Part shown: one piece after another, positions 2,806 through 3,250 of the stretch
Position numbering within the stretch: position 1 is the first letter of the stretch
Layout: each line of letters opens with the position of its first letter
IMG/VR virus record: IMGVR_UViG_2681813227_000002
Location: 1 to 4,546 of that record
DNA: 4,546 nucleotides
Reading direction: 5' to 3' (one strand)
Origin: a virus
Taxonomy: Duplodnaviria > Heunggongvirae > Uroviricota > Caudoviricetes
Program-made: the position numbers and the translations under genes
Notes under the pieces: model-generated
Database searches by the model: none
What the model saw: only the letters and a program-made list of their open reading frames with translations
What the model was told of the DNA's origin: nothing

Positions 2806-3173
2806 GTGGATTCTATCTAGGCTTAGTGCATACAGAAGATTGCTGGTAAAGGACATGCCAGGCAAAACGATGAGGACTGATATTTATGAAAACATCTGAT
2901 TTTTTACTGTTCTTGCATGCGGTACAGGAGGGGCTTTGACCGGGCATTTTATCGTGAATATTTTCACTTGGTATTTCTTTGGTTTTAGAGATTACTTCAC
3001 TCGATGGGTTTTAAATAGTTTTCGTCGGTTTATCGGGTGCAAGCCTGATATGAGAATTTATAAAGATGAAAAGAATTGATTGTTAATGTGTTATGAGGTT
3101 TTTTGTTGTGAGTTTGTAATTTGCTTTTATAGAAATACATTAAGTAAATATAATTAAATATTCAAATTGTATA

Positions 3174-3206
3174 TGTATGCGACATGTTGGTGTTTGGTCG
3201 CATACA
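3174..3206. terminator. Stable hairpin between the convergent units; candidate transcription terminator or protein-binding site
   Basis: Perfect 10-bp stem 3174-3183 TGTATGCGAC / 3197-3206 GTCGCATACA with a 13-nt loop, about 45 nt downstream of the reverse-strand ORF's stop codon. The flanks are T-rich on both strands but there is no clean U-tract. Confidence 0.35.
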
Positions 3207-3250
3207 CTGTTGAATATTTGGCTAATGTTATATCAATGTAGAGTTAAAGT

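Follow-up and report, generated by a model that had tools for sequence, protein, structure and literature searches.

An apparent ORF-free spacer in a Stx-type prophage is probably the remains of two decayed genes and a short 3' untranslated region

Introduction

Between ninE and the stop codon of a large convergent gene, a lambdoid prophage carries about 450 bp without a long open reading frame (ORF). What is this DNA? A first-pass annotation of positions 2806 to 3250 described it as an AT-rich spacer beginning at an insertion boundary. Two short ORFs behind Shine-Dalgarno-like motifs and a promoter-like sequence were pointed out in it, and a small peptide, a small or antisense RNA, and silencing DNA were offered as possible functions. 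We have followed up these proposals computationally. The interval probably holds decayed genes and, after them, a short 3' untranslated region, and is not a dedicated regulatory spacer. The region is a case of ordinary prophage gene decay at a mosaic junction.

Results

The window and its cargo gene

The window, by which we mean the whole 4,546-nt stretch of DNA that was analysed, belongs to a lambdoid (Stx-phage-like) prophage, of which it covers the early-right and nin region. Its gene order is ori iterons, the end of O, P, ren, several small ORFs, ninB, ninE, and a large gene that we call the cargo gene. The features that frame the interval are these:

2158-2568: ninB
2565..2747, + strand: ninE, intact, 60 aa
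3251..4522, - strand: 3' two-thirds of the cargo gene, AT-rich, truncated in the window, with its stop at 3251
4523..4546, + strand: end of an IS3-family (IS629-like) element, which interrupts the cargo gene

The ninE gene is in the ORF list, and two near-identical loci, L001 and L002, have it annotated as a NinE family protein. The intact cargo gene encodes a 590-aa protein (phrog_9230) that is annotated as "hypothetical protein". The part of the cargo gene that lies in the window is 99.9% identical in nucleotide sequence to positions 4552-5824 of L001, where the intact coding sequence occupies 4552-6324. Of 5,426 complete E. coli genomes, 251 have prophages that are 99.4-99.9% identical to the window over positions 2700-4523, as are the Stx1 phages AU6Stx1 and SH2026Stx1. 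The cargo gene is intact in AU6Stx1, SH2026Stx1, and the E. coli prophage copies, in which the stretch from ninE to the cargo stop carries no annotation. Homology to every other insert copy ends at 4523. The sequence that follows, TGAACCGCCCCGGAAATCCTGGAG (4523..4546), has one mismatch to the end (477-500) of an L001 element with an annotated transposase of the IS3 family.

An AlphaFold2 model of the cargo protein was too poor for a fold search (pLDDT 38). Literature on the cargo accession, AU6Stx1, and nin-region morons yielded no description of this insert, and a tRNA/tmRNA scan found none.

We confirmed that the DNA from ninE to the cargo stop (3251) is free of ORFs of 60 aa or more. The description of the interval as AT-rich was right for part of it. 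GC content is about 29% only from ~3000 to 3300 and is 40-44% across 2700-3000, and the AT-rich cargo block begins only at ~3085. For the block of 29% GC, silencing of the H-NS type would be plausible on general grounds, and it would concern the whole cargo insert, not the spacer specifically.

A 5' fragment of ninF follows ninE

The left part of the interval lies in the remains of ninF:

2744..2899, + strand: remnant of ninF (DUF1364), a pseudogene with a GTG start at 2744

Homology to ninF begins directly after ninE, whose stop codon overlaps the ninF start (GTGA). A complete ninF ORF is not present. The remnant translates as VID, a stop, NRSYEQESVERASVYTEWILSRLSAYRRLLVKDMPGKTMRTDIYENI, and another stop, and the first of these stops is a CAA-to-TAA nonsense change at codon 4 (2753-2755). 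Alignments to ninF of lambda and of phage ev207 showed that the remnant is itself a mosaic, with a lambda-type 5' end to ~2792 and ev207-type sequence at 2793-2872. Many lambdoid phages and prophages have ninF/DUF1364 regions that match this second segment at 87.5%. At ~2872 the ninF homology ends, and the frame continues through foreign sequence to a stop codon (2897-2899) that lies within the small gene described below. Judged from these alignments, 2744-2872 is the 5' part of ninF, inactivated by the nonsense codon and cut off by the insertion. The insertion boundary had been placed at 2806. However, ninF homology reaches ~2872, and a separate small-gene module occupies ~2852-3088.

Two short ORFs are the halves of one frameshifted gene

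The first-pass annotation placed two mini-ORFs in the middle of the interval, and both are present as it described them. Their relationship to a single gene is laid out here:

2872..2876, + strand: GAGGA, 9 nt upstream of the ATG at 2886, the small gene's Shine-Dalgarno sequence
2886..3079, + strand: small-protein gene, 64 codons if intact, a pseudogene in the window
2886..2939, + strand: 17-codon mini-ORF, made of small-gene codons 1-6 and then 11 out-of-frame codons, with its TGA at 2937-2939
2900..2905, + strand: T6 homopolymer, the site of a -1-nt frameshift (T7 in intact alleles)
2936..3079, + strand: 47-codon mini-ORF, made of small-gene codons 18-64, its TTG being Leu18

A sensitive DNA search with the spacer alone matched 2896-3088 to an annotated 64-aa coding sequence, WP_135247427.1, at 84% nucleotide identity. 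This sequence comes from a Rac-like prophage of E. coli HY220605 (L003). A pairwise alignment to it is collinear over both mini-ORFs, and the sole gap is 1 nt in the T-run. With one T added, a single ORF of 64 codons runs from the ATG at 2886 to the TGA at 3079, and its product is MKTSDFFTVLACGTGGALTGHFIVNIFTWYFFGFRDYFTRWVLNSFRRFIGCKPDMRIYKDEKN. By this alignment, the 17- and 47-codon ORFs are two halves of one frameshifted 64-codon gene. Therefore, an ORF of 60 aa or more is missing between ninE and the cargo stop because of a 1-nt deletion in the T-run, not because a gene is absent. As it stands, the window copy would be non-functional.

This changes the meaning of the two ribosome-binding motifs. 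The AGGAGG at 2926-2931, upstream of TTG 2936, corresponds to codons 14-16 of the small gene, and ACA GGA GGG GCT TTG reads T-G-G-A-L in the ancestral frame. In the Rac-type copy, the same stretch is ATT GGT GGG GCT CTG. In the complete E. albertii genome L028, it is ATC GGA GGG GCT TTG, in which the TTG and a GGAGG core are kept. The hexamer and the TTG are missing from most intact homologues. AGGAGG/TTG is thus not a conserved start signal, because the Rac-type and E. albertii copies read differently there. At the position equivalent to GAGGA, the Rac-type homologue has the purine-rich sequence GGAGGGGG. We conclude that GAGGA at 2872 is the real ribosome-binding site of the small gene and that AGGAGG/TTG represents ordinary internal codons. 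The suggestion that the region encodes a small peptide was therefore partly correct: the mini-ORFs derive from a real small-protein gene, but they are two fragments of it and not independent ORFs with their own Shine-Dalgarno sequences.

The small gene belongs to a conserved and very narrowly distributed family

P0001, a 64-aa database protein found in a few E. coli assemblies, is 100% identical to the restored product, and three others from Salmonella and other E. coli prophages (P0002-P0004; 64-69 aa) are 78-83% identical to it. The family makes up five clusters among 5.8 billion proteins, from E. coli, Salmonella, and E. albertii. Between pairs of five homologues, dN/dS ranges from 0.11 to 0.26 and dS reaches 0.87, and 45 of the 64 positions in the family alignment are invariant. 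The low dN/dS and the invariant positions indicate that selection acts on the protein. Their substitution pattern identifies the small genes as a genuine coding family under purifying selection. The window copy has collinear homology to the family over its whole ORF, including the conserved core TVLACGxGGALxGHFIVNxFTWYxFGFRDYFTRW. It does not have the uninterrupted frame of a functional member, for T6 shifts the frame after codon 6.

Neither the mini-ORFs nor the restored protein matched a family in Pfam, NCBIfam, PHROGs, or PADLOC (E <= 1), and a PDB sequence search with the small protein gave no match. A profile search with the family alignment against 1.84 billion representative proteins recovered only two genuine relatives. 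The other matches were set aside as probably spurious, each being aligned in 7-11 separate stretches. The family is unnamed, undescribed, and very narrowly distributed in enterobacterial prophages.

The N-terminal half of the protein is hydrophobic and rich in Gly and aromatic residues, and the C-terminal half is basic; the restored protein has a pI of 9.4. On the Kyte-Doolittle scale, hydrophobicity averaged over 19 residues peaks at residues 6-24 with 1.48, a value that is borderline for a transmembrane helix. AlphaFold2 predicted a single long helix, residues 3-50, with modest confidence (pLDDT 68). The small protein is probably a small inner-membrane protein that acts with the partner described in the next section.

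The small gene has a different partner elsewhere

Outside this insert, the small gene is always arranged tail to tail with a gene for a 131-aa protein (phrog_36733), and the two are 4 nt apart. The 131-aa protein has an N-terminal hydrophobic segment and was called membrane-anchored. The pair is found at several sites in the early regions of prophages, where it follows cro, ydaT, or a pRha-like gene or lies beside icd. Promoter and terminator scans of these loci gave results at chance level. In the window, this tail-to-tail pairing is absent; the 590-aa cargo gene takes the convergent position, at a distance of 171 nt. We considered whether the cargo gene might be a diverged version of the 131-aa partner and rejected this, as the two proteins have no similarity.

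Of 16 examined loci with the 131-aa gene as tail-to-tail neighbour, 14 have an intact small gene, and almost every locus with the 590-aa cargo gene has a broken one; these locus counts are not phylogenetically independent. Homology of the window to loci of the 131-aa type is confined to ~2852-3088, the small-gene module. The insert thus has two modules, a small gene that elsewhere has the 131-aa partner and a 590-aa cargo gene that elsewhere occurs without the small gene. The upstream junction between the ninF fragment and the small gene is the same in E. albertii L016 as in the window.

The T6 allele predominates

We compared an 80-nt T7 query with the complete E. coli genomes. All 251 that have the region showed exactly one gap, and none was identical to the query. 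Of the 36 IMG/VR viral-contig copies with the cargo gene or ninE alongside, 35 also have T6, and so do the window, L001, and L002. Across many serotypes T6 is fixed, and the remaining ORF is unchanged.

T7 was found in several loci. One is the E. albertii genome L028, which has the same context, ninE-small gene-cargo-HNH-ninG, and a cargo that is 93% identical. Others are L005, the E. coli locus L006, an E. coli contig with 3% divergence (L007), and L030, which is a viral contig. The L005 assembly is noisy, but a mere sequencing artefact was rejected as the explanation of T7 because L028, L030, and L007 have it too. The cluster of intact small proteins has 4 member sequences, compared with 1642 in the cargo protein cluster.

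One further locus, L063, has all of the E. albertii-type single-nucleotide polymorphisms, yet it has T6. Because T6 occurs on this background, the T-tract must have changed length at least twice independently. In E. albertii L016 and L029, an independent frameshift lies elsewhere in the small gene. The distribution of T6 fits the recent spread of a pseudogene, but a functional T6 allele could produce it too.

The rest of the interval is a short untranslated region with a hairpin

With both gene remnants removed, the truly non-coding DNA comes to only about 170 bp (~3080-3250). It contains the following features:

3080..3153: AT-rich non-coding stretch, poorly conserved; small-gene module homology ends at ~3084-3088
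3154..3221, - strand: long hairpin, inverted repeats I3 and I4, 30-97 nt past the cargo stop
3156-3165 / 3210-3219, - strand: outer stem of the long hairpin
3174-3183 / 3197-3206, - strand: inner stem, 11 bp with a 13-nt loop, 45-77 nt past the cargo stop

The segment 3085-3153 is the fastest-diverging part of the locus, with 13 differences in ~70 nt from the orthologous L028 sequence compared with 2-3% in the flanking segments. This number of differences argues against a constrained RNA there.

The hairpin is a different matter. On the - strand, which is the cargo strand, it folds much better than shuffled sequences (z = -4.66), whereas on the + strand it does not (z = -0.08). L007 and L028 both have the inner hairpin (3174-3206) without change. 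In an unrelated E. albertii island beside nleF, a locus with no small gene nearby, a cargo paralogue of 71% identity is followed by a matching hairpin, 46-79 nt past its stop. The loop of that hairpin is different and its stem has two compensatory pairs, a covariation that comes from one diverged sequence only and was equalled by 69 of 500 shuffles. The hairpin belongs to the cargo gene, because it also follows the cargo paralogue where the small gene is absent. By this comparison, 3174-3206 is the 3' element of the cargo gene, and its most likely role is to end the cargo mRNA or to stabilise that mRNA at its 3' end. A terminator scan of 2600-3500 found no terminator-like site. The stem-loop of an intrinsic terminator is present alone, with no U-tract, and the tail after the stem is AUAUACAAUU.

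The first-pass annotation had named conservation and covariation as a check on the spacer. What has been kept is the small-gene coding sequence and the inner hairpin; 3085-3153 has diverged, and AGGAGG is not conserved.

Discussion

Could the interval still make a product?

The T6 allele might still be expressed. By -1 frameshifting on U UUU UUA or by transcriptional slippage, it would give a low level of the ~64-aa protein, or T6 and T7 might form an ON/OFF switch. The heptamer (2899-2905) has the slippery form X XXY YYZ and is in 0-frame phase, and a -1 shift on it gives MKTSDFL-TVLACG..., which rejoins the ancestral frame. However, such a heptamer arises automatically from any T7-to-T6 deletion before A, and the conserved stimulatory structure of a programmed -1 frameshift site is missing downstream (2870-2990 folds with z = +0.84 against shuffles). 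The repeated change of tract length among close copies would suit a switch, but the OFF form is in 251 of 251 complete genomes, which is not the mixed population expected of one. Apart from the indel, no T6 copy examined has a further disabling mutation, but the copies are >99% identical, so that the lack of further decay says little. We consider an expressed or switching T6 allele improbable. If it were true, the poly-T would keep a possibly toxic small membrane protein OFF, and rare T7 revertants or frameshifting would produce it. A switch would imply a stochastic phenotype in a prophage subpopulation, e.g., exclusion or lysis timing. It is even less probable that the 47-codon ORF is translated on its own, from AGGAGG and TTG 2936 with coupling at TTGA, to give an aromatic, basic peptide that is toxic or regulatory. 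A strong Shine-Dalgarno-like hexamer does stand 4 nt ahead of the TTG, which shares bases with the stop codon of the 17-codon ORF, and AGGAGG-N4-TTG is found in all T6 copies. Even so, the hexamer is a matter of codon choice for T/I-G-G-A-L; it is missing in the Rac-type copy (ATTGGTGGGGCTCTG) and is GGAGG in E. albertii L028 (ATCGGAGGGGCTTTG). Of the conserved hydrophobic segment, moreover, the first 17 residues are missing from the 47-aa fragment. No 47-aa product of this ORF was found among the 5.8 billion clustered proteins, in which the only short match is a 41-aa E. albertii fragment.

An RNA product was the other proposal, either a small or antisense RNA that runs into the 3' end of the cargo gene or a type I antitoxin-like RNA against the small gene. 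The genes are convergent, so their 3' ends could overlap, and a stable hairpin is present at 3154-3221. Two + strand promoter-like matches lie in the interval: TTGACC-N17-TATTTT at 2936-2964, which is there as the first-pass annotation had noted, and TTTATA-N17-TATAAT at 3126-3154. But these do not stand out from chance, with 3 such matches in 2600-3500 against 3.2 +/- 1.7 in shuffles, and a promoter pointing at the cargo 3' end finds no support in them. The -35 and surroundings of the better site vary in E. albertii, where 3131, 3138, and 3144 are changed. On the + strand, the hairpin folds no better than shuffles, and it goes with the cargo gene. A permissive Rfam scan of the whole window found no match above noise; the best was a plant miRNA model that reflects the hairpin, at 27.9 bits against a gathering score of 80. 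We searched the spacer for direct and tandem repeats and found none, and a ToxIN-like repeat array was rejected on that account. An RNA encoded in the spacer is thus very unlikely, and decayed genes followed by a 3' untranslated region are the reading that we prefer.

A possible history of the insert

In lambdoid phages, replacement of the middle of a gene by such a block is the usual pattern of mosaic inserts. The insert resembles nin-region morons of lambda in that a small gene and an oppositely oriented AT-rich cargo gene replace the middle of ninF, between ninE and the ninG-side genes. It differs from the lambda arrangement in that ninF is just a dead 5' fragment here and the insert is a composite of two histories.

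These histories can be put in a tentative order. A cassette of the small gene and the 131-aa gene may once have sat in ninF. Later, the AT-rich block with the 590-aa cargo gene would have replaced the 131-aa gene. The orphaned small gene, now dispensable or harmful, might then have been lost by slippage at its most mutable site. Because the small gene is co-directional with the nin operon, an intact copy would be transcribed from pR during lytic growth. Repeated loss at the same T-run after replacement of the partner hints that the small protein and the 131-aa protein work together. The two may represent an undescribed two-gene prophage module.

Comparison with known systems

The small protein has features of type I toxins (Hok/Gef, TisB, Ibs, and Fst/TxpA type): it is small (64 aa), with a predicted hydrophobic N-terminal helix and a basic tail, and it is prophage borne with a convergent neighbour, so that a 3' antisense overlap is possible. 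It differs from them in that its database searches gave no family match, Hok/Gef included. Furthermore, no antitoxin RNA or promoter was detected, and the convergent neighbour is a protein gene.

The T-run resembles those of phase-variable contingency loci and slippage pseudogenes, in which a 1-base change of a poly-T near the 5' end of an ORF flips the frame, and both of its lengths are found in nature. Contingency loci differ from it, because a tract of 7 nt is short for such a locus and the OFF form is fixed in every complete E. coli genome examined.

The cargo hairpin can be compared with 3' stem-loops such as intrinsic terminators and REP-like stabilisers. It shares with them a stable GC-containing stem-loop past the stop, with compensatory changes after the paralogue. 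Intrinsic terminators have a U-tract after the stem, unlike the cargo hairpin, so termination here would be by inference from the stem-loop.

For annotation, the value of this analysis is that an apparent ORF-free spacer in a Stx-type prophage probably resolves into two pseudogenes and a 3' untranslated region. A candidate regulatory-RNA or regulatory-peptide locus is thereby removed. The 590-aa cargo gene appears to take its own conserved 3' hairpin along wherever it is moved.

As a separate observation, the Providencia homologue has a canonical terminator at a comparable position.

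Interruption of the cargo gene

In the window, the cargo gene of the ninF insert is broken off by the end of an IS3-family element. The features involved are as follows.

3251-4522 (-), cargo gene, interrupted; the intact copy, encoding 590 aa, is at 4552-6324 in the near-identical locus L001
4523-4546, end of an IS3-family (IS629-like) element, TGAACCGCCCCGGAAATCCTGGAG

L001 has this element end too, with 1 mismatch, ahead of an annotated IS3 transposase. The junction between the cargo gene and the IS3-family end at 4523 was found in no complete E. coli genome of our collection. 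Neither gene of the insert is therefore likely to be functional in the window's genome.

The cargo protein family

The 590-aa cargo protein belongs to phrog_9230, and Pfam has no family for it. Members were seen solely in E. coli, E. albertii, Salmonella, and Providencia. In E. albertii, nleF and an AvrPphF-like gene adjoin a 71% paralogue of the cargo gene, and the Salmonella homologues are flanked by cdd and sanA. Gene context alone prompts our guess that the protein is a type III effector. Its N-terminus is rich in Ser/Thr and carries an LTLNDFLDN repeat. AlphaFold2 gave an unusable model (pLDDT 38).

A canonical intrinsic terminator (4065-4090, GAGGGGGGGGAUUCCCCUCUUUUU) lies 3' of the Providencia homologue (locus L026), whereas in E. 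coli and E. albertii the gene is followed instead by the hairpin, which has no U-tract.

The partner of the small gene

A gene for a 131-aa protein (phrog_36733) that has a hydrophobic segment at its N-terminus is constantly tail-to-tail with the small gene in Rac-like and Salmonella prophages, with 4 nt between the stops. Further loci also have this gene; two copies are listed.

5190-5585 (-), 131-aa protein gene, Rac-like prophage locus L003
5206-5601 (-), 131-aa protein gene, locus L008

The two genes may form an undescribed module.

Flanks of the insert and the nin region

L001 contains a tandem hexamer repeat, (ATTTCT)x5, at 6640-6675, in AT-rich DNA that lies upstream of its intact cargo gene and beyond what the window covers. 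At the insert's right boundary in L001 (~6820-6850, likewise beyond the window), CTGTTCAGGTGGCCAAATTCAG occurs shortly before the 3' end of ninF and the ninG-side DNA return. Presumably, CTGTTCAGGTGGCCAAATTCAG resembles an IS911-type terminal repeat; if so, it would hint at IS-mediated acquisition of the insert.

ninB overlaps ninE directly in the window (2158-2747, compared with L001 2905-4048), whereas a Dam-type adenine methyltransferase gene separates them in its closest relatives (L001, L002, L005, and L028). The window also contains the following.

1611-1817, extra small ORF, 68 aa, very hydrophobic
1835-2155, extra small ORF, 106 aa
1-110, ori iterons of the lambda type, repeats resembling ATCCCTCAAAACGAGGGA within the O gene, matching the annotation of the Stx1 phage AU6Stx1
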